Assembly: GCA_036785375.1 (NCBI GenBank) | Contig: JAWMAR010000028.1 | Span: 4,340,001-4,404,000, forward strand | Source: Leucoraja ocellata | Taxonomy: Eukaryota | Direction of reading: 5' to 3' | Length of the DNA stretch: 64,000 nucleotides | Part shown: piece by piece, positions 10,076-56,960 of the stretch | Position numbering within the stretch: position 1 is the stretch's first letter | Layout of the letters: each line of letters opens with the position of its first letter | Translations under genes and position numbers: made by a program | Notes under the pieces: model-generated | The model's database searches: none | What the model was told of the DNA's origin: nothing | The model's input: the letters and a program-made list of their open reading frames with translations, nothing else

Positions 10076-11279
10076 TTGTCTAACCCTGTTGAGATTTGTT
10101 CAACAGTCCTTAGTCAGATGGTACCACCCTGCACATTTCTGTTAACTGGCAAACTACGTCAGATTGTCTTTGGAGAGTCTGAAGAAGGGTCTCAACCTGA
10201 AACATCGCCTATCCCTTCGCTCCTTAGATGCTGCCTCACTCACTGAATTTCTCCAGCGTCTTTGTTTACCTCAGTTTGTCTTGCACCTTTTCTTGCCAGT
10301 TAGTCCAGATGACAAACGATACCAGAAAAATTGTTTCTGAGTCATCAAAAATGAAGTCACTTTGAAATTACATGTGGGACATTAACTGGGATGTCACTTT
10401 ATACAATACAAGATGGTGCCTTTACCTGCTACACCATTGGACAGCTCATGACCCCGATCTTTAAAGTGCCACAAGCACAAATAATCATGTAAGTGGTAAA
10501 TGGTTAATTTGGACAATGAGGCCAGATTCGCAGCACATAGCATAAATCAGCTGATGTTTGAGGCGAAGACACTTCTTTGTCACAGAAGGCTGTGGATATC
10601 TTGAAGGCAGAGATAGATACATTCTTCATTAGTACAGGTGTCAGAGGTTATGGGGAGAAGGCAGGGGAATGCTGTTAGGGGGAAAGATAGATCAGCCATG
10701 GTTGAATGGCGAAGTAGACATGATGGGCCGAATGGCCTAATTCTATTCCTATTCCTAACACATGAGAAAATCTGAGAAAATCCATTGTCACATCGATGAA
10801 TATAAAGTACAAGTAACCAGCAAAATCTATTAAAATTCGTAGGTAATTTCCATTACAAATGAATGGAGGGAAGATTTATGCTGAATTTCATGATATCCAC
10901 TGTTCAATAAAAGGTGGCTAAATTCTTGGAGAAATGGCATTGTCATGTGTCTCCCATGGTATCTGCAGTGATTTCAGAGACCCCACCCGCTCCCCCCCCC
11001 CACCCCAAATGCTGGGTGCTGTCGGGCCGTCTATTTCACACCCCTCATCCCAGAGGCGTTGCCATGTTCTCTCTCATTCAGTTATTCTGATATTGCACTT
11101 TAGTTATTTTTTTCATGACTTCAGATTTATTCATCATTAATTGTATTATTAGTTGCATTCATCATTACCATGTGTACTATTTACTCTGCGAGCTTTGTGG
11201 AAGCATGGAATTTCAGTTCACCCTGGCGTATATGGCAAAAACTAATCGGAATCAGAAAGTGGTTGGGAGAATAGCATAA

Positions 11280-11538
11280 AGGGCCTGAACCACTTGGCGA
11301 TTTTGACGGCATCACATCAGTGTCACCAAAAGATTTTGAACATTTCCAAATTCAGCGTCGACAAAGCAAATGTTGCGACACTTAAAAAAACACCGCGCGT
11401 CATACGTCATCACGCTGCGTCACACATCATCACGCTGCATCGCCGCCGTGTCATCAAGCCGCGTATTTTTCGGTGACCTGATACGACATTTGATGATGCC
11501 AGCAGTCGCCGAAAAAATCGCCAAGTGGGACAGGCCCT
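11280..11538. mobile_element. PIF/Harbinger-like MITE with TAA TSD
   Basis: TIRs agggcctgaaccacttggcgatttt / aaaatcgccaagtgggacaggccct. TAA at 11277-11279 and 11539-11541. Confidence 0.85.
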
Positions 11539-11593
11539 TAAGATCTTGTGGTGAATGGAGGTACGTTGTAATGAGTCAAGTCAAACACATATC

Positions 11594-12152
11594 GCTTTAC
11601 CTCCCCCCTCGACTCCATTCAAGGACCCAAGCAGTCGTTCCAGGTGCGACAGAGGTTCACCTGCATCTCCTCCAACCTCATCTATTGCATCTGCTGCTCT
11701 AGATGTCAGCTGATCTACATCGGTGAGGCCAAGCGGAAGCTTGGAGATCGTTTCGCCGAACACCTCCGCTCGGTCCGCATTAACCAACCTGACATCCCAA
11801 TGGCTCAGCACTTCAACTCCCCCTCCCATTCCGTATCCGACCTCTCTGTCCTGGGCCTCCTCCATGACCAGAGTGAGCACCACCGGAAATTGGAGGAACA
11901 GCACCTCATATTCCGCTTGGAGAGTCTGCATCCTGGGGGCATGAACATTGAATTCTCCCAATTCCGTTAGCCCTTGCTGTCTCCTCCCCTTCCTATCTTT
12001 CCCTCAGCCCTCCGGCTCCTCCTCCTTCTTTTTCCTTTCTTCTACCCGCCCCCATCAGTCTGAAGAAGGGTTTAGGCCCGAAACGTCGCCTATTTCCTTC
12101 GCTCCATAGATACTGCTGCACCCGCTGCGTTTCTCCAGTATTTTCGTGTACC
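11594..12152 (+). mobile_element. Penelope-like element 3' fragment (GIY-YIG endonuclease + pLTR), nested in an LTR
   Basis: ORF FTCISSNLIYCICCSRCQLIYIGEAKRKLGDRFAEH...HFN...LEEQHLIFRL...PGGMNIEF. Splits the LTR sequence acacatatc|aggataca. Confidence 0.9.
12060..12087 (+). ncRNA. minimal hammerhead ribozyme motif in Penelope pLTR
   Basis: CTGAAGA-A-GGGT(ttag)GCCC-GAAAC-GTC: both catalytic boxes, stem II and an NUH triplet. Stem I and stem III are very short. Confidence 0.6.
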
Positions 12153-13336
12153 TCAGGATACAACACGTTTATTAAATGAACTTACAGAATCAGTCTGCAG
12201 AACATAACAGTTCCTAGCAGCTACTCACACTGAGTGGCGTAGGCAAACTCTTGCTGATATAAAACGCATATTGGGTGGAGGAACTACTAACAAGCACTAT
12301 ATTTGGCTAGTAGGGAATAACCAATCTACATCTTTCCTTGTAGAAACAAAAAGAAAACATCGGGACATAGGAACAAAGGGTGGCTAAGCAATACAGGTAG
12401 CGGAACGCTAATAACGCATACGGGGAAGTTTATATAGTTACACAAAATCACCGGATCTAATGGGCGGCCTGCTAACCCGTCCGGCACGTGTGCGGTACGA
12501 ATTCGCTTCACCTCCTTTCACCAGAGAAGATACCGGGGAGGGAACGGGAGACGTAACCGGGGACCCGACGGGGTGGGGTGGTGAGATACTCATTGGTGGT
12601 GACCAATGATCGATATGCATCCCACTTCTGACACCATGTAATGAGTGGAGTCAAACACATATCAGGATACAACTCATGTTTATTAAATGTACTTACAGAA
12701 TCAGTCTGCAGAACATAACAGTTCCTAGCAGCTACTCATACTAAATGGCGTAGGCAAACTCTTGCTGATATAAAACGCATATTTGGCGGAGCAACTACTG
12801 ACAAGCACTAAAGTTGGCTAGTTCGGGAATAACCAATCTACATACGTGACAGGATAGGATGATAATGATTTTTTTACATCCTCGTTGCCTTTTTTAATTC
12901 TGTGCATTCTGCTCTTGGGAGTTCCTCCGTCACTAACTCTTGGTTAACAAACGGCATCAAACCATGGCTTGCAAGGGAAAAATGAATCTCTTAGCCTCTT
13001 TCCTCCTTTTACCTGCTTTCCAATGATCTCCTACTGAACTTTATTTACAAGGCTGAGATTGGGTGTGATATTTCTCTCTGAATATCTGCTCTGTAGAGTT
13101 TATGAAATACTATCTAAAATAGTTGGATTCATGTTAATTAAATAACAGTCTTAGTATGTTGTTTATTTTGTGTTCGCTAATTTTATGGAATCATTGACAA
13201 TTGTTACAAAGGACGGTGTGTTATTGAGCATAACTTTATGTTGAAAGCTTATCTATTGGTTTTTACTGTAAATTATGAAATTAACTAGTTGGGTTTGGCA
13301 GGCTTGTATTATAAAGTGCAAATCTATGGTATTTAA

Positions 13337-15598
<2,262 letters not shown>

Positions 15599-19399: not shown

Positions 19400-20145
19400 T
19401 GTCAGCATCTCACCTGTGAATATCAATGAAACAAATATCTCTGCAAGATGTCCTACAAATTCCTCATTAGCTTTTCATGATGCTCCAGGATAAACTTGAT
19501 CCCACCCAGTGGATTTATCCACCTTTGTGTTTTAAGACCTCCAACGCCTCTTTTTCTGTATTGTGGACTCTCTCCAAGATATCATTTTTAACTTGCCTGA
19601 GTTTCCTACCATCCATGTTATTCATCTTGCTATGGCTTCATACACACACAGATGGTCTTGTTGATCTTTAAGGAGCCATATTCCCTCCATAGTTACTCTA
19701 TCCTGAATATACTTGGAGAATATCTATGGATTTTGCTTTACCCTCTGTGCCAGAGCTATCTTTTGTTCCCTTTTTGCCCTCCTGATTTCCCTTTTAAGTC
19801 TACTCCTTAAGGGAATCATTAAAGGAATCGCTTCGTCCCAGCTGCCTATACCTGGCACAGCTTATTTTGCTAACCAAATATTTAACATTGCTTGTCATCC
19901 TATTTCTCTCAGTCTTGCCCTTTATTCTAACAGGAACATGCTGGCCTTGAACTCTCCTTATCTTACTTTTAAAAGCCTCCCACTTGCCAGACATCTCTTT
20001 GCCTGCAAATCACCCTCACCCCCTCGTTAAATATTTGATAGCTCACGTCACATGCCATCAAAATTGACCTTGCCCCAATTTAGGAGTCCATCCTTTGGGC
20101 CAGTCCTATCATTTTCCATAATTATTTAAAAACTAATAGTGATAT
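19400..20145 (-). mobile_element. decayed CR1-like LINE internal fragment
   Basis: Minus-strand KWEAFKSKIRRVQGQHVPVRIKGK, typical of the region between endonuclease and RT; heavily degenerate. Confidence 0.6.
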
Positions 20146-20202
20146 TCGATACAGATGATCGTTATTAGATTACCATGGTATAGTTTTGTTAATCAATGTT
20201 TT

Positions 20203-21013
20203 ATGGCTGGTCTAGCACTCTGGTGCCAGGATAACAGCCTCCTCTTGAACATCAAAAAAACGAAGGAGCTGATCATGGACTTTAGGAGGGCACATCATCC
20301 GAGGATGTGCACTCCATTGAGGATAAATGGGGATCCTGTGGATAGGGTGAACTGTTTTAAATATCTGGGAGTCCACATCTCCGAGGATATGACATGGGCA
20401 TCACATGCCTCTGCACTCGTGAGTAAGGCAAGGCAGCGCCTTTACCACCTCAGGCAATTGAGGAAATTCAGAGTGTCTCCGAGGATCCTCCAGTGCTTCT
20501 ATGCAGCGGCGGTGGAAAGCATCTTGTCCGGGAACATTACCATCTGGTTTGGGAATTGCTCTGCCCAGGACAAGAAGGCTCTGCAGAGTAGTGCGTTCAG
20601 CCGAACGCACTATGGGAACTTCACTTGCCCCCCTGCAGGAACTATACATCAGGATATGCAAATCCAGAGCCAACAATATCATGAGAGACCCCTTCCACCC
20701 CTGCAACGGACTGTTCCAGCTGCTACGGTCAGGCAAACGCCTCCGTTGCCATGCAGTGAGAACGGAGAGGTTGAGAAGGAGTTTCTTCCCAGAGGCCATT
20801 TGGACTGTAAATGCCTATCTCACCAGGGACTAACTCTACTGAACGTTTTTCCTTCCATTATTTATTATGTAAAAGAATATGTGTGTTATGATTGTGTTTA
20901 TAGTTTGTTTGGTTGTTTGTCTTTTGCACAAAAGTCCGCGAGCATTGCCACTTTCATTTCACTGCACATCTCGTATGTGTATGTGACAAATAAACTTGAC
21001 TTGACTTGACTTG
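20203..21013 (+). mobile_element. Rex1/Babar-clade LINE 3' fragment
   Basis: WCQDNSLLLNIKKTKELIMDFRR, FKYLGVHISEDMTW, KARQRLYHLRQLRKF; (GACTT)n tail. Very similar to 47346-48134 (-). Confidence 0.88.
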
Positions 21014-37631: not shown

Positions 37632-38963
37632 GAATGAATGAATGCCTTTATTTGTCGTTGTAAGCACTGCATACAACAAAATTATTATTGCCATTCGATC
37701 AGTGCATAATATACAAACATAAAAACACAGGACACAATTAAAAAACAATATTATAAACTAGGTATCAAGATAAATAAATAATCAGTATTGCACATGGTGA
37801 TAGTAAAGTGTGAGGTGGGTAGCAGCATGGAAGAGTGCAGCATGAATAATACTCAGTGTTTTTTCATATTGAGTGTGAAGATTGCTTTGGGGGAGAAACT
37901 GTCTCTGAGTCTGGAGGTGCTTGTTTTGGCTGACCTGTAACGCCTGCCAGAGGGCAACAGTTCAAACCGGGGTGTGTGGAGTCTGATGATGTTAGTGGCT
38001 CTGCTGAGGTAGCGTGAGGTGGCAATGTCCTCCAGAGAGGGCAGTGGGTAGCCGGTGATTCTCTCTGCTGTTTTTACCACTCTCTGGAGCGCTTTCTTGT
38101 CTGCAGCAGAGCAGCCTGCAGACCACACTGACATGAAGTAGGTCAGTAGACTCTCAATGGTTGCCCGGTAGAAGGCCACCAGCAGCTCCTTCTTGGTGTT
38201 GTGCCTCCTGAGCACTCTCAGGAAGTGGAGTCTCTGTTGTGCTATCTTGACCGTTGCAGTGATGTTGGCTGACCAGGTGAGGTCCTTGGATATGAGGGCT
38301 CCTAGGAATTTGAACGGCTGCACCCTTTCCACACATGCAGAGCGGGGCCGGGTCTGTGTCCCGTTTCCTCCTGAAGTCCAGTATCAGCTCCTTTGTCTTT
38401 GTGGTGTTCAATGTCAGGTTATTTACTGACCACCACTCTGACAGTGGCTGTATCTCGTCCCTGTACGCTGACTCGTCCCCTCCTAAGATGAGCCCGACCA
38501 CAGTTGTGTCGTCAGCAAATTTAATAATGGTAGGCGGCTGGACAGTCATGTGTGTATAAGGAGTAAAGGAGTGGACTCGGCACACAGCCTTGAGGTGCAC
38601 CAGTGCTTAGTGTGATGGAGGAGGAGATGCGGGGCCGGTTTTAACTGTCTGTGGGCGGTTTGTGGGAAAGTCTTTGATCCATGTGCAGATGGGGGAGGAG
38701 AGGCCTAGGTCAAGCAGTTTGCTGATTAAAATGTCTGGAATGATAGTATTGAATGCTGAGCGATAATCAATGAATAACATCCTCACGTAGCTTTCCCGGT
38801 GTTCCAAGTGGGTCAGTGCGGTGTGAGTTGCTATGGCGATGGCGTCCTCAGTGGATCTCTGTAGGTAAACTGATGTGGGTCGAAGGAGGGAGGTAGGCTG
38901 GTTCTGATGTGATGCAGGACTAGTTTCTCAAAGCACTTCACTGGTGTAAGTGCAATTGGTCTG
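37632..38963 (-). mobile_element. Rex1-clade LINE, 5'-truncated and frameshifted
   Basis: [52 protein letters not shown]; (CATT)n tail. Confidence 0.9.
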
Positions 38964-47345: not shown

Positions 47346-48134
47346 TCAAATCAAATCAAGTCAAGTTTATTTGTCACATACACCTACGAGATGTGCAGTG
47401 AAATGAAAGTGGCAATGCTCGCGGACGTTTGTGCAAAAGACAAACAACCAAACAACCAAACAAACTATAAACACAATCATAACACACATATTCTTTTACA
47501 TAATAAATAATGGAAGGAAAAACGTTCAGTAGAGTTAGTCCCTGGTGAGATAGGCATTTACAGTCCGAATTGCCTCTGGGAAGAAACTCCTTCTCAACCT
47601 TTCCGTTCTCACCGCATGGCAACGGAGGCGTTTGCCTGACCGTAGCAGCTGGAACAGTCCGTTGCAGGGGTGGAAGGGGTCTCCCATGATTTTGTTTGCT
47701 CTGGAGTTGCACCTCCTGTTGTATAGTTCCTGCAGGGGGTGAGTGAAGTTCCCATAGTGCGTTCGGCCGAATGCACTACTCTCTGCAGAGCCTTCTTGTC
47801 CTTGGCAGAGCAATTCCCAAACCAGATGGTAATGTTCCCGGACAAGATGCTTTCCACTGCCGCTGCGTAGAAGCACTGGAGGATCCTCGGGGACACTCTG
47901 AATTTCCTCAATTGCCTGAGTTGGTAAAGGCGCTGCCTTGCCTTACTCACGAGTGCTGAGGCGTGTGATGCCCATGTCATATCCTCGGACATGTGGACTT
48001 CCAGATATTTAAAACAGTTCACCCTATCCACAGGATCCCCATTTATCCTCAATGGAGTGCACGTCCTCGGATGATGTGCCCTCCTAAAGTCCATGATCAG
48101 CTCCTTCGTTTTTTTGATGTTCAAGAGGAGGCTG
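47346..48134 (-). mobile_element. Rex1/Babar-clade LINE 3' fragment
   Basis: Near-identical peptide and 3'UTR to 20203-21013, in the opposite orientation. Confidence 0.88.
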
Positions 48135-49401
48135 GAAGCAGAGGGACGTCAACAACTGATTTCCCCAGTCGAGTGTCATTATGAGCCATGTAGTAAAGTT
48201 AGATGTAGGTGACCTTTATTTCTTCATTGTCTATGTTATCGAAACAAAATTAATTGACAGAGGATGACAGTTTAAGGGTATATGTTTCCCATGATGGTCA
48301 TTGTCAACAAATAGTCTATTGAACATTTAGATTTCACTACAGCACAGGCTCGTTCAGTACCCCCTGAGACACCGATATTGTTACGATTCTGTGTGCGCAA
48401 TTCCATTAACAACTATCAGAGGTCGGAGGAAATGGGCAGTCCTCTGTTTGTTGCTATTTTAATTAATGTATTGCGATGCTTTAGTTGAATTCATCATCTA
48501 ATTTATATTCCCGGCTGACTTGGTTAATGAAGAACAGGTTACTTTGTGCAAATGACTGTTTTCCCCTCGTGAGCTCTAAGGTGCCACAAAAAATATCAGT
48601 GGGCCGTGTTACCCCTTGACAAATGTTTAAATGAATTGCTGGATGTTACAAAATCAGTTGCCAAGGAGCATTTAGGAAGATAGAACGGTGTTTTTGTATG
48701 GAGTTTTCAAAACATTTTCAAATGTTGGGTGCTGGTTTCTGGAGAATTGTAGTTCTTGGGGCATCGGTTTACAATGAACTCTACCCATCGGGAGTAAGAG
48801 GACATTGAAACCAGATTATTATAATTAACATTTAAGGTGCTCCACTGACGGCATAGAGCTTCCATGCCCTACATCACATCCGTAATATTAATCAAAACAC
48901 AGTATAACAAGCACACGTTTTACTCTTTCCACATGCCAGCTATCTTGATTTTTTTTAATAGATTGCCCTTGATGAAATGCATGCATTACAAGAGAAGATT
49001 TGTTAAGCTAAAGTTTGTAAATAAAAATTTGGGTGAAATGCATATTATGGGAATTTCTGATACTTATTCCTATTTGCCTGAGTTGATGACGTTTTCATTA
49101 TGAAGATTGCAGTCATGGGCTCATTTGTAAACGCCAATGACATGCTAACATACTTGCTAGGAATTGAATTGAACTTAACTAAACCTCTATGACTCTAGAT
49201 TATATTATATCACTGCACAGAAATCAGAAGTCTCTGTCCGTTATCTCCCAGTTGTACCAAACATGACCTGTCCCTTCACCTCCCCCCTCAGTAGATAAAG
49301 CCCTCTCTGACATTTACATCAGGCTAGTAAACACTAGAGCCTCCAAATAAGATCCAAACTGTATGGTCATGAGGGCATTGGTTTTGTCTTTTGCACTATA
49401 A

Positions 49402-52994: not shown

Positions 52995-54585
52995 CGTGAG
53001 GAGATGGCTCCAAAAATATCCCCAACCTCGGACATGATAGGAACCTGTTTGGAAGTGCTAAAGAAATGGGTAAAGCATTTGCAACCATGTGCAGTCAGAA
53101 ATGCAAAATAGATGGTGCACCTCGACTTCCCTCTGCAATCCACTATCTGCAGCCAATTGGATTCACTCCAAATGATGTTATGAAACAGCTGAAAGCAATG
53201 GATACAGCATTGGACACGGGTCCACGCAACATGGTGATTAAATCCTGTGTCCCAGAACAAGCTGTTCCAATACATACACGATTCCGGCCATGCGACAAAT
53301 GACCGGTTTGTACAGTTTACAAAAAGCAGAACAAATCTAGCTAATCAATATATTTGCCACCAGCCAGCAAAATGATGGGGACTATCGTCAGCAGTGCTGC
53401 CAGTAACCTGCTCACCGAAGCAGGGAATGCGTAAGTGAATCATCATTTGACTGTAGACTTCTTCACAGCCGTGGTGCAAACCTGAACCAACAAATGAATT
53501 GGGGAGATAAAGAAAGAGTGACTTCCATTGGCATCAAGATGGCATCTGACCAAGTGTGGCATCTGAGTTCGCTGGTCAATAGGCACTATGGGGAAACACC
53601 ATTGGTTAGATAACTTACACAAAGGCAGTTCACTCTGGTTATTGGAGGACCACCACTATAGTTCCTTGACATCATAGCATATCCTAGGCCCGACCTTCAG
53701 ATCATTAATCAATGACCCTTCTTTCATCAAAAGGAGGTAAGATGGTTACATACTGTTCTATCCATTTACAATTATGCAGGAAATTAAACATTCCGTGCCT
53801 GTGGGCAACTAGACTACATCAAAGTCCAAGGGTGGCCGAATACGTGGAAAATAAAATAGTGCCGTAAAAGTGCCTGGAAATGATCACCCCAAACATGGGA
53901 GTCTAACCATCGCTCATTGACATTCAATGGCAGTACAATCGCAGATTCCTTCTCCATTAACTTCCATGGGGATGCAATTGATCGGAATCTCAACCAGAAT
54001 AGTAATATATATCTATATAAACTGTAGCTACAAAAGCAGGTCAGAAGCAGGGTATCCTGTGGTGACTTACTCACCTCCTGGCTTCTCAAAGCCATTTACA
54101 AGACACATGTAAGAACGTAATAAATTCCTCTCCACCTAGCGGCAACTTTAAAGAAACTCATCACCACCTGGGTCAAACCAGCCGGCTTGATAAGTACTCC
54201 ATCTACCACTCCAAACATTCATCCCTCAACAACTGGCCGCTTTGTGTCACGTTTTGTGAAATGCGCTGCAATTACTTAATAAGGCCCTTTGAACAGCACC
54301 CCCCAAACCCTGGGGCTCTACCACATCAACAATGACAGAAGGCATCTGGTAATGTCACCACTTGCAAGTTCCCCTCCATCACGACTTGGAAATAGATTGT
54401 TGGCCAGTCAAAGTTGCTGGGTTATACAATCGTGAAACACTCTGCCCACCATTGCTGATGGAGCACTTTTATCAGAAGGACCGCAACAGTTCGAGAAAGC
54501 ATCGCATCACCAAGGGCTTTGGGGTTGGCTAATGAATGCTGGCCTTGCCAATAATGCCATGATCCCAGAAAATGAATTTAAAAAA
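52995..54585 (+). mobile_element. ancient, highly decayed CR1-like LINE
   Basis: Degenerate RT-proximal sequence (FTPNDVMKQLKAMDTALDTGP). The 3' tail atgctggccttgcc...atccc...atgaat resembles, from recall, the tail shared by CR1-4/DeuSINE-type elements. Confidence 0.55.
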
Positions 54586-54623
54586 CAAGCAGAACTTTAT
54601 GTCCTCTAAGATAGACACAAAAT

Positions 54624-56960
54624 ACCAGCATGTTAAATGTGCTACAAGAGGAGCTAACACCCTGGACAAGGTCTACTCCAACATCAAGCTGGGCTACAGG
54701 GCTAGACCACTACCACACCTGGGCCAGTCTGACCATATGTCCCTGCTCTTAATTCCTGCATATGCCCCCCTCAGGAAAACCGCTCCTACTATTACAAAGA
54801 CCATCACAACCTGGCCTGATGGTGCTTCTCAGCAGCTGCAGGACTGTTTCGACAGGACCAACTGGGAGGTGTTTGAACACCGGGACCTGGAGGTGTTCAC
54901 AGACAGTGTACTGTGTTACATTAAAAACTGCATGGGCACGGTCACAGTGGACAAACGCATCCGGGTCTACCCCAACCAGAAGCCCTGGATGACCCGGGAG
55001 GTCCAGCGGCTGCTGAAAGAGAGGAACACCGCTTTTAGGTCTGGCGACAGGGCTTTATACAGCACGGCCCGAGCTAACCTGAAGAGAGGCATCAGAGAGG
55101 CCAAATCAAACTACAGGAGGAAGATAGAGGACCACCTGGACAGTAATAACAGCAGGCAGGTGTGGCAGGGGGTCCAGTATCTCACCAACTATAAGACCAA
55201 CCTTGGAGCTGTTGAAGGTGACGCCTCGCTGGCAGAGGAGCTGAACCACTTCTTTGCTCGCTTTGAAGTGGAGCCACCCGAGACAGCCACATCACAGCAC
55301 ATGGTCCACAGCAGCCTAACCCTCAAGATAGAGGAGCATGAGGTGAGGCGCACTCTGCGGGCCATCAATCCAAGGAAGGCTACTGGACCTGACGGCGTCT
55401 CTGGACGCGTGTTGAAGGACTGCGCAGACCAGCTGGCTGGAGTCTTTACAAGGATTTTTAACCAGTCTCTGGCCCAGTCCACTGTCCCACCCTGTCTGAA
55501 GTCCTCCACCATAGTCCCCTTGCCCAAAAAAACCAACATCTCCAGCCTCAACGACTACCGGCCAGTCGCACTTACACCAGTGGTGATGAAGTGTTTTGAA
55601 AAACTGGTCCGGGGTCACATCACATCACTCCTGCCCCGAAGCTTTGACCCCCACCAGTTTGCGTACAGAGCAAATAGATCCACAGAGGACGCTGTAGCCA
55701 CAGCTCTCCATGCTGCACTGTCTCACCTGGAGCAGCGGGGGAGCTACGTGCGGATGCTCTTTGTGGACTACAGCTCTGCTTTTAATACCATCCTTCCCCA
55801 CAGACTGGTGGACAAACTGGGGGACTTGGGACTTCCACACTCCACCTGTACGTGGATCAATAGCTTCCTGTCGGGTCGCAGCCAGAGAGTCAGAGTGGGC
55901 CATCACACATCCACGGCCCTCAGCCTCAGTACCGGCTCTCCACAGGGCTGCGTACTGAGCCCCCTGCTCTACACCATCTACACACATGACTGCACCCCCG
56001 CCCACCACAGCAACACCATTGTCAAATTTGCGGATGACACTACGGTGGTGGGACTCATCTCCGGGGGGGGGACGAGTACGCCTACCGGGATGAGGTGGAG
56101 CAGCTGACAGTGTGGTGTGAAGAAAATAACCTGCTCCTCAACACCTTAAAGACAAAGGAAGTAATAATAGACTTCAGGAAGAATAAAACGGACATGGTAC
56201 CATTGACTATCAGAGGGGACTGTGTAGAGAGGGTGGCGGATTTCCGCTTCCTGGGAATCCATATTGAGGAGGACCTGACGTGGAGCGTGAACACCACTGC
56301 GCTGCTGAAAAAGGTCCAGCAGAGACTGCACTTCCTGAGGGTGCTCAGGAAGAATAACATCACTCAGAGACTGCTGCTGTCCTTTTATCGGTGCTCCATT
56401 GAGAGCATACTAACATACTGTGTATGCGTGTGGTACACCAGCTGCACAGCGGCTCAGAGGAAAGCGCTCCAGAGGGCCATTGACAACGCCCAGAGGATTG
56501 TCGGCTGCCCTCTCCTTACCCTGGAGGACGTACACAGTTCCCGCTGCACCAAAAAATCCCAGAATATCATAAAGGACATTTCCCACCCCGGACACTCCCT
56601 GTTTGAACTGTTGCCGTCAGGCAGACGGTACAGATCTACAAGGACAAGGACAAATAGACTAAAAAACTGTTTTTACCCCACTGCTATAAAATCACTAAAT
56701 GTAGCCGCCAAGGAACGCAGGGGCGATACAGACTAAGGGACTGTGGTAACTGTGAAATCGACAGAAGGATGGAGGGTTGGGTTTGTATGCGTGCTTTGTT
56801 CGTGATATTTATTTAGTTGTTTATCTTTTAATATTTTACCTTGTATGTATCGTTAGCTTTTAGAAATGTTTGAATGCTGCACTGACTGGCTGACATTTTA
56901 AATTTCGTTGTACATGGTTCATGTTACAATGACAATAAAGAAACTATTCTATTCTATTCT
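54624..56960 (+). mobile_element. young Rex1-clade LINE, 5'-truncated (end of APE domain, full RT)
   Basis: TRGANTLD...[43 protein letters not shown]. Single frameshift in the G-run at 56063-56071. (CTATT)n tail; TSD AAAAT at 54619-54623 and 56961-56965 inside a Penelope fragment. Confidence 0.93.

Follow-up and report, generated by a model that had tools for sequence, protein, structure and literature searches.

A miniature Gypsy-derived LTR element in Leucoraja ocellata as a probable product of failed plus-strand transfer

A short LTR element in the genome of Leucoraja ocellata had been taken, in a sequence-only reading, for a member of a mobile TRIM family. It lies in a window of 64,000 nt (contig JAWMAR010000028.1, positions 4,340,001 to 4,404,000), which is the whole stretch of DNA that was analysed and to which the coordinates below refer. 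An element of this shape may be one of many dispersed copies or the trace of a single event, and we asked which origin fits the focal copy and its relatives in the genome.

Structure of the focal element and its surroundings

The earlier reading described a non-autonomous Gypsy-derived LTR element with a remnant of the pol C-terminus, and this was borne out by comparison with the parent family. The 5-bp TACGT target site duplications (TSDs) at both ends, the TGTA...TACA termini, the 306-bp interior, the purine tract and the tRNA-Leu complement on the minus strand were likewise found as stated (Table 1). Of the two ~206-bp direct repeats, the right LTR is intact but the left is interrupted by a 561-bp insert; the size of ~720 bp holds for the element without this later insert (718 bp), the full span being 1,276 bp. 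The proposed primer, tRNA-Leu(CAA), was correct as to the tRNA-Leu 3' end but too specific, since in this genome the 18-mer is common to genes for Leu(CAG) and Leu(CAA). The interior (12331-12636) consists of the 18-nt tRNA complement, then 30 nt of linker, and finally 258 nt made up of the pol tail, the 3' UTR and the purine tract. Its pol-tail frame terminates in YRTRAGRVSRPPIRSGDFV followed by the stop codon. The LTR pair differs by 14 substitutions over 203 sites (K2P 0.072).

Table 1. Features of the focal element and of the insert in its 3' LTR, in window coordinates
Feature	Position	Strand	Basis or comment
TSD right copy, TACGT	12843..12847	no strand	
5' LTR, intact, 206 bp, TG...CA	12637..12842	-	66-93% identity to family LTRs
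18-nt complement of tRNA-Leu 3' end	12619..12636	-	parent's native site matched over first 10 nt only
30-nt linker, 8-bp inverted repeat and 8-nt repeat of adjoining pol sequence	12589..12618	-	
End of pol frame, final ~50 codons and stop, integrase-side tail	12438..12588	-	
3' UTR with polypurine tract (12331-12339) at its end	12331..12437	-	sibling copies carry the same tract
3' LTR, main piece, LTR nt 1-181	12153..12330	-	
Later insert, 561 bp, GIY-YIG-like frame	11592..12152	+	edges uncertain by 2 nt
3' LTR, terminal piece, LTR nt 182-206	11567..11591	-	
TSD left copy, TACGT	11562..11566	no strand	

The linker (interior nt 19-48), on which the earlier reading was silent, had no convincing source in the parent on either strand when 15 long copies were compared. 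Two candidate sources were rejected: L192 shares the first 6 nt, yet its landing is an inverted pol site, and L062, a match with one mismatch, lacks the element context. The two repeat features of the linker occurred together in 1 of 20,000 shuffles, although these features were picked after inspection. Such a repeat structure fits self-templated synthesis at the joint, and the linker was likely made there by fold-back and slip-back synthesis.

The frame of the insert matched PF01541 with an E-value of 0.00037 and 21.2 bits, below the Pfam cut-off of 22.6, and we take the insert to be a 3' fragment of a Penelope-like element. The focal element adjoins a 754-codon stop-free stretch (13337-15598, plus strand), to which it lies antisense and just upstream at a distance of ~490 bp. 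This stretch, which carries a KN motif (PF12075, E 6.6e-21), is a large exon of a KANK-family gene. A MITE, presumably Harbinger-like, stands 27 bp from the focal element at 11279-11539, with 32-nt terminal inverted repeats 197 nt apart and TAA on either side. Elsewhere in the window, LINE fragments with RVT_1 and several ALKBH8_N matches were observed at 54563-56733, 20143-21006, 37856-38383 and 47612-48148.

A single-copy junction and its parent family

The focal interior had 591 candidate matches genome-wide, of which the best 40 were scored; among these best 40 of 591, all 39 other matches begin at interior nt 49-73 and none crosses the junction. A query spanning the LTR, the primer site and the linker aligned to other loci over at most 85 of its 161 nt. 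Two junction patterns were searched in the whole genome and matched exactly at the focal locus only. The first had 11 matches at up to two mismatches compared to 55 for a control, and the second had one other match, at three mismatches. The focal flank is single-copy in the assembly, where neither a second haplotype nor an empty site of the locus was found. Junctions shared among the two-LTR short siblings that were checked each represent one locus duplicated with its flanks; the sibling L145/L200/L201 (147-bp interior), for example, occurs three times, always between the same flanks.

The focal junction thus occurs once in the genome, no dispersed insertion among the matches scored shares its interior, and membership of a mobile TRIM family was rejected on this single occurrence. 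That the element was moved in trans by the parent Gypsy as part of such a family is highly improbable, even though both LTRs, a perfect primer site, a polypurine tract and a TSD are retained within ~720 bp, a parent with the same LTR exists and the genome searches scored the best 40 candidates only. No second copy of the junction accompanies these features, the shared junctions of short siblings are duplications that include the flanks, and the element has lost its entire 5' UTR, the presumed seat of a packaging signal. The earlier reading had itself named a junction unique to this locus as the finding that would speak against a family, and had equated it with a post-insertion deletion; the junction is unique, but this explanation of it is probably also wrong, as argued below.

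The same reading had suggested looking for an autonomous Gypsy with the same LTR, and a decayed parent of autonomous type was found. This partner consists of long copies with 82-93% LTR identity, all of them decayed. Independent insertions of the long copies are 81-87% alike and every one is broken. The parent interior is ~4.25 kb, insert-free long copies measuring about 4.1-4.3 kb. In the long copy L088, profile matches place RVT_1 upstream of Integrase_H2C2, and Ty3 Gag-Pol is among the best PDB matches (E 1.4e-21). Because RVT_1 precedes Integrase_H2C2 and the Ty3 reverse transcriptase is among the best solved matches, we assign the parent to Ty3/Gypsy. A 281-aa stop-free stretch in the long copy L081 ends in the same basic tail as the focal frame, downstream of an Integrase_H2C2 match. 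A weak lead from an atlas (K02A2.6-like, rank 14, score 0.84) makes the Mag clade a possible placement.

The first 10 reference long copies have interiors of 3.9-5.7 kb and all 10 carry an imperfect native primer site, which matches the tRNA over 10 nt and then has a bulge of one extra base. The primer-binding site (PBS) that the focal element was said to have kept is accordingly not the parent's PBS. Since the long copies carry the imperfect site, the perfect 18-mer of the focal element is likely a copy of the tRNA primer.

Two classes of copies, the tRNA template and the landing sites

After the 5' LTR, copies of the family fall into two types, continuing with the native site in one and with the exact tRNA complement in the other. 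At up to two mismatches, the genome contains 279 junctions of LTR with 18-nt tRNA sequence and 123 of LTR with native site, a ratio that takes in duplicated loci and sister subfamilies. When 38 regions were picked by their 3' end, 22 junctions were obtained, 15 native and 7 tRNA-type. Sequence was retrieved for all 66 other exact tRNA-type matches and for 31 of the 37 exact native-type matches. The 67 tRNA-type loci, focal copy included, represent 48 independent insertions, three duplicate pairs having been merged by eye and confirmed by flank comparison. Nineteen of the 67 loci occur twice with 94-100% identical flanks, on several contigs, an indication that duplicated or second-haplotype sequence is present in the assembly and inflates the copy counts.

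Of the 48 independent 18-mer insertions, 47 depart from the native sequence exactly where the tRNA copy ends, and one continues into the native 5' UTR. Native-type loci continue natively in 30 of 31 cases, partly by construction of the search pattern. Copies with a corrected PBS and a native 5' UTR do exist (L180/L181, L074), so that deletion may also follow upon the acquisition of a perfect 18-mer. Deletions and inversions further in are frequent among native-type copies, which suggests that the family is prone to rearrangement in general. LTR-LTR identity was equal in the two classes (medians 92.6 and 92.4%, p 0.32), which by this measure appear equally old. TSDs were present in 13 of the 17 tRNA-type events with both ends resolved, focal copy included, and many tRNA-type copies had no 3' LTR inside 5.9 kb. 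The locus L211 (G000:C11:11573514-11581014) has three LTRs, tandem and partly inverted, with one native and one tRNA-type primer site.

The length of tRNA copied was 18-19 nt in 23 of the 48 events and 23-66 nt in 25, the read-through lengths clustering at 34-35 and 41-50 nt; nt 49 of the copy is the final base ahead of tRNA position 37. According to PMC13191261, synthesis stops mainly at m1A58, once 18 nt have been copied, and less often at position 37. Half of the read-through events (12 of 24) depart from the gene sequence at nt 19, which lies opposite A58, with 8 A, 3 G and 1 C; the corresponding figures are 0-3 of 24 at neighbouring non-CpG sites and 6 and 10 at the two CpG sites. The three longest events (54, 58 and 66 nt) match the tRNA without an intron, whereas both Leu(CAA) genes seen have an intron of 30 nt; other genes that lack it may exist. 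Collectively, these features suggest that the tRNA itself likely served as template for the tRNA-type copies and that the sibling junctions likely record positions at which it was chemically modified. The signs of a modified template are seen in the siblings, the focal copy with its 18 nt being too short to display them, but its nt 11-18 follow the tRNA and diverge from the native site. An argument for an RNA template from the terminal CCA was dropped because the native site likewise begins with TGG. ARAGORN found no tRNA genes at six element loci, and its intron-mode calls on LTR-adjacent fragments were discarded as artefacts. L161 and L169/L170, two independent long read-throughs, both mismatch the Leu(CAA) genes at interior nt 55, opposite tRNA position 32, perhaps as a modification footprint or from another gene copy. 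The variable-arm region of the read-through differs between L126 and L130 on one side and L112 and L127 on the other, which suggests at least two different Leu tRNAs as primers in these families.

The sequence reached from the tRNA end was then mapped. The landing lay elsewhere in the element, with at least three references, in 37 of the 48 events (21 forward, 16 inverted), and these were kept for analysis; two mapped with fewer than three references, one landed correctly and eight, focal copy included, had no immediate landing. Microhomology of at least 4 nt between the tRNA end and the landing was present at 16 of the 37 joints, compared to 3.75% of 400 simulated joints, and at 9 of 30 when two hot spots were counted once (p 1e-6). 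Extra bases, seen as negative overlap, occurred at 11 of the 37. The members of a hot spot could descend from a rearranged master; they differ in their flanks and in their second junctions, and the latter difference argues against such descent. The 16 inverted landings are not accounted for by simple mis-annealing to the minus strand; together with the eight landings outside the element, they may be a sign that the cDNA was end-joined by the host and not switched by reverse transcriptase. Certain copies (L174, L182, L204; L243, L263, L264) read LTR, tRNA copy, inverted 5' interior and inverted full LTR. With the inverted full LTR, both ends of such copies are LTR starts, and its completeness implies a DNA template.

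The tRNA-Leu pattern is not confined to this family. A 25-nt pattern taken from the 3' half of tRNA-Leu had 604 matches in the genome; among 30 that were examined, one was a tRNA gene and 29 stood behind an LTR-like end, in 12 sequence groups. A second, younger family, with LTR pairs 98-99% alike and a native site of 8 nt, gave 24 primer-site loci: 17 native-type, 6 tRNA-type and one hybrid. All six tRNA-type loci leave the native sequence. The hybrid (L247), part tRNA-like and part native, possibly reflects partial correction during transfer.

Proposed origin and comparison with known systems

We consider it quite probable that the focal element is a single, non-amplified Ty3/Gypsy copy that lost nearly all of its interior before integration, through a failed second (plus-strand) transfer. 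In the proposed sequence of events, tRNA-Leu would prime at the imperfect site of 10 nt and bulge that the long copies carry. Plus-strand strong-stop DNA would run through the LTR into the tRNA and copy 18 nt of it, halting at m1A58; the 18-mer is present in the element, and the m1A58 stop is established for retroviruses. The 3' end of the tRNA copy would not extend at the native site because it mismatches that site beyond nt 10. The strong-stop DNA would have joined instead at a point 258 nt upstream of the 3' LTR, via the putatively self-templated 30-nt linker; the joint is seen directly, and its maker may be reverse transcriptase switching or host end-joining. Integrase would then have inserted the product with the 5-bp duplication that is observed. 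The copy appears to have made no further detectable movement, and the presumed Penelope-like fragment later entered the 3' LTR in which it now lies.

Alternatively, a PBS-corrected longer copy may have integrated and a later break may have removed ~4 kb, with end joining of the polymerase-theta type leaving the templated linker. Fold-back and slip-back structure of the kind seen in the linker is typical of polymerase-theta-type repair, PBS-corrected long copies exist as described above, and native-type copies are internally deleted down to a 407-bp interior (L212). However, the break would need to coincide exactly with nt 18/19, which is the end point in 23 of 48 tRNA-type events; long copies with a corrected site are uncommon (1 of 48); and a chromosomal deletion cannot yield the siblings' read-through tRNA with m1A58 miscopying. 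These points make a later deletion unlikely. We also find it doubtful, and rather more so, that the linker is unrelated RNA or DNA captured by template switching. This would alter the joining step only. Eight of the 48 events do run into non-element sequence, and the source search covered 15 long copies only; yet neither junction pattern has a second exact match in the genome, and chance seldom produces the linker's repeat structure in shuffles, with the proviso already made on the choice of its features. The tRNA-type insertions, focal copy included, are best read as having been dead on arrival, the outcome of a second-strand transfer that failed. The focal copy is one of the less informative of them, with 18 nt of tRNA, no microhomology and an unproven linker source.

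The focal element itself is an inert remnant, and the interest is carried by its class. This class gives in-genome evidence on second strand transfer in Gypsy elements with a short primer site, a question studied mostly in yeast, and suggests one concrete way in which miniature LTR elements could originate. It is also a warning that calls of a "perfect 18-nt PBS" and LTR-adjacent tRNA fragments can stem from failed copies rather than from an active element. Stops at tRNA modifications (positions 58, 37 and near 26) would be readable from old genomic copies. A broader proposition, whose chances we regard as even, concerns the first, tRNA-bearing plus-strand strong-stop DNA: in these animal Gypsy families it would regularly be saved by being joined ectopically and integrated, and in some families the resulting copies would account for most of those that bear a primer site. 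In that case, hundreds of dated cDNA snapshots of germ-line tRNA-Leu would be preserved in the genome, in which modified positions appear as stops or miscopied bases, along with a constant reserve of TRIM-shaped seeds whose primer site is perfect.

In spleen necrosis virus vectors, Pulsinelli and Temin reportedly found in 1991 deletions from strand-transfer errors that begin at the primer site, within one replication round; these were laboratory vectors with a perfect site, unlike the copies described here. A literature search with partial subscription coverage, and with Repbase and Dfam outside its scope, returned no description of tRNA read-through junctions in genomic LTR-retrotransposon copies, and the accessible text of PMC12789967 and PMC10886601 held nothing further on tRNA junctions in such copies. 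TRIMs (plant TRIMs, PbTRIM, Helenus, Ajax; see PMC10886601) resemble the focal element in being under 1 kb and Gypsy-related, with two LTRs, PBS, polypurine tract and TSD and no protein. In contrast, TRIMs are amplified families with a common interior, whereas the focal element is single-copy with a pol tail as interior, and its LTR contains neither tRNA nor 5S sequence.

For yeast Ty1 and Ty3, the review PMC5371799 describes primer tRNA sequence as not inherited and the first tRNA-bearing plus-strand strong-stop DNA as non-productive. The short primer site is kept across generations there as here. In yeast this product is described as a dead end, building up in particles (PMC5371799), whereas here it appears to have been ectopically joined and integrated. 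Non-inheritance is suggested here indirectly by the copies, through the imperfect site in the long copies of two families.

A close parallel is HIV-1, in which defective proviruses arise from aberrant (delayed) second-strand transfer and carry tRNA primer sequence at the deletion junction, with inserts of 7-54 nt in 44 sequences and a change at the A58 position in 5 of 44 (PMC12657518). Intact LTRs, tRNA bases at the junction, an A58-position change and a downstream landing are common to both systems, and the focal copy shares with its siblings a junction that starts at the tRNA end, its own LTRs and TSD being intact apart from the later insert. The HIV-1 proviruses are a minority, somatic, and have a perfect 18-nt site (PMC12657518), whereas here germ-line Gypsy copies form the larger class by pattern count, and a copy halted at the normal 18-nt stop is already a mismatch to their imperfect native site. 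A58 miscopying is commoner here (12 of 24) than in HIV-1 (5 of 44), and inverted landings make up 16 of 37 here, the word "inversion" having no occurrence in the main text of PMC12657518. Together, these comparisons are best read as showing that tRNA-at-junction products, known from HIV-1, are here abundant in an animal Gypsy.
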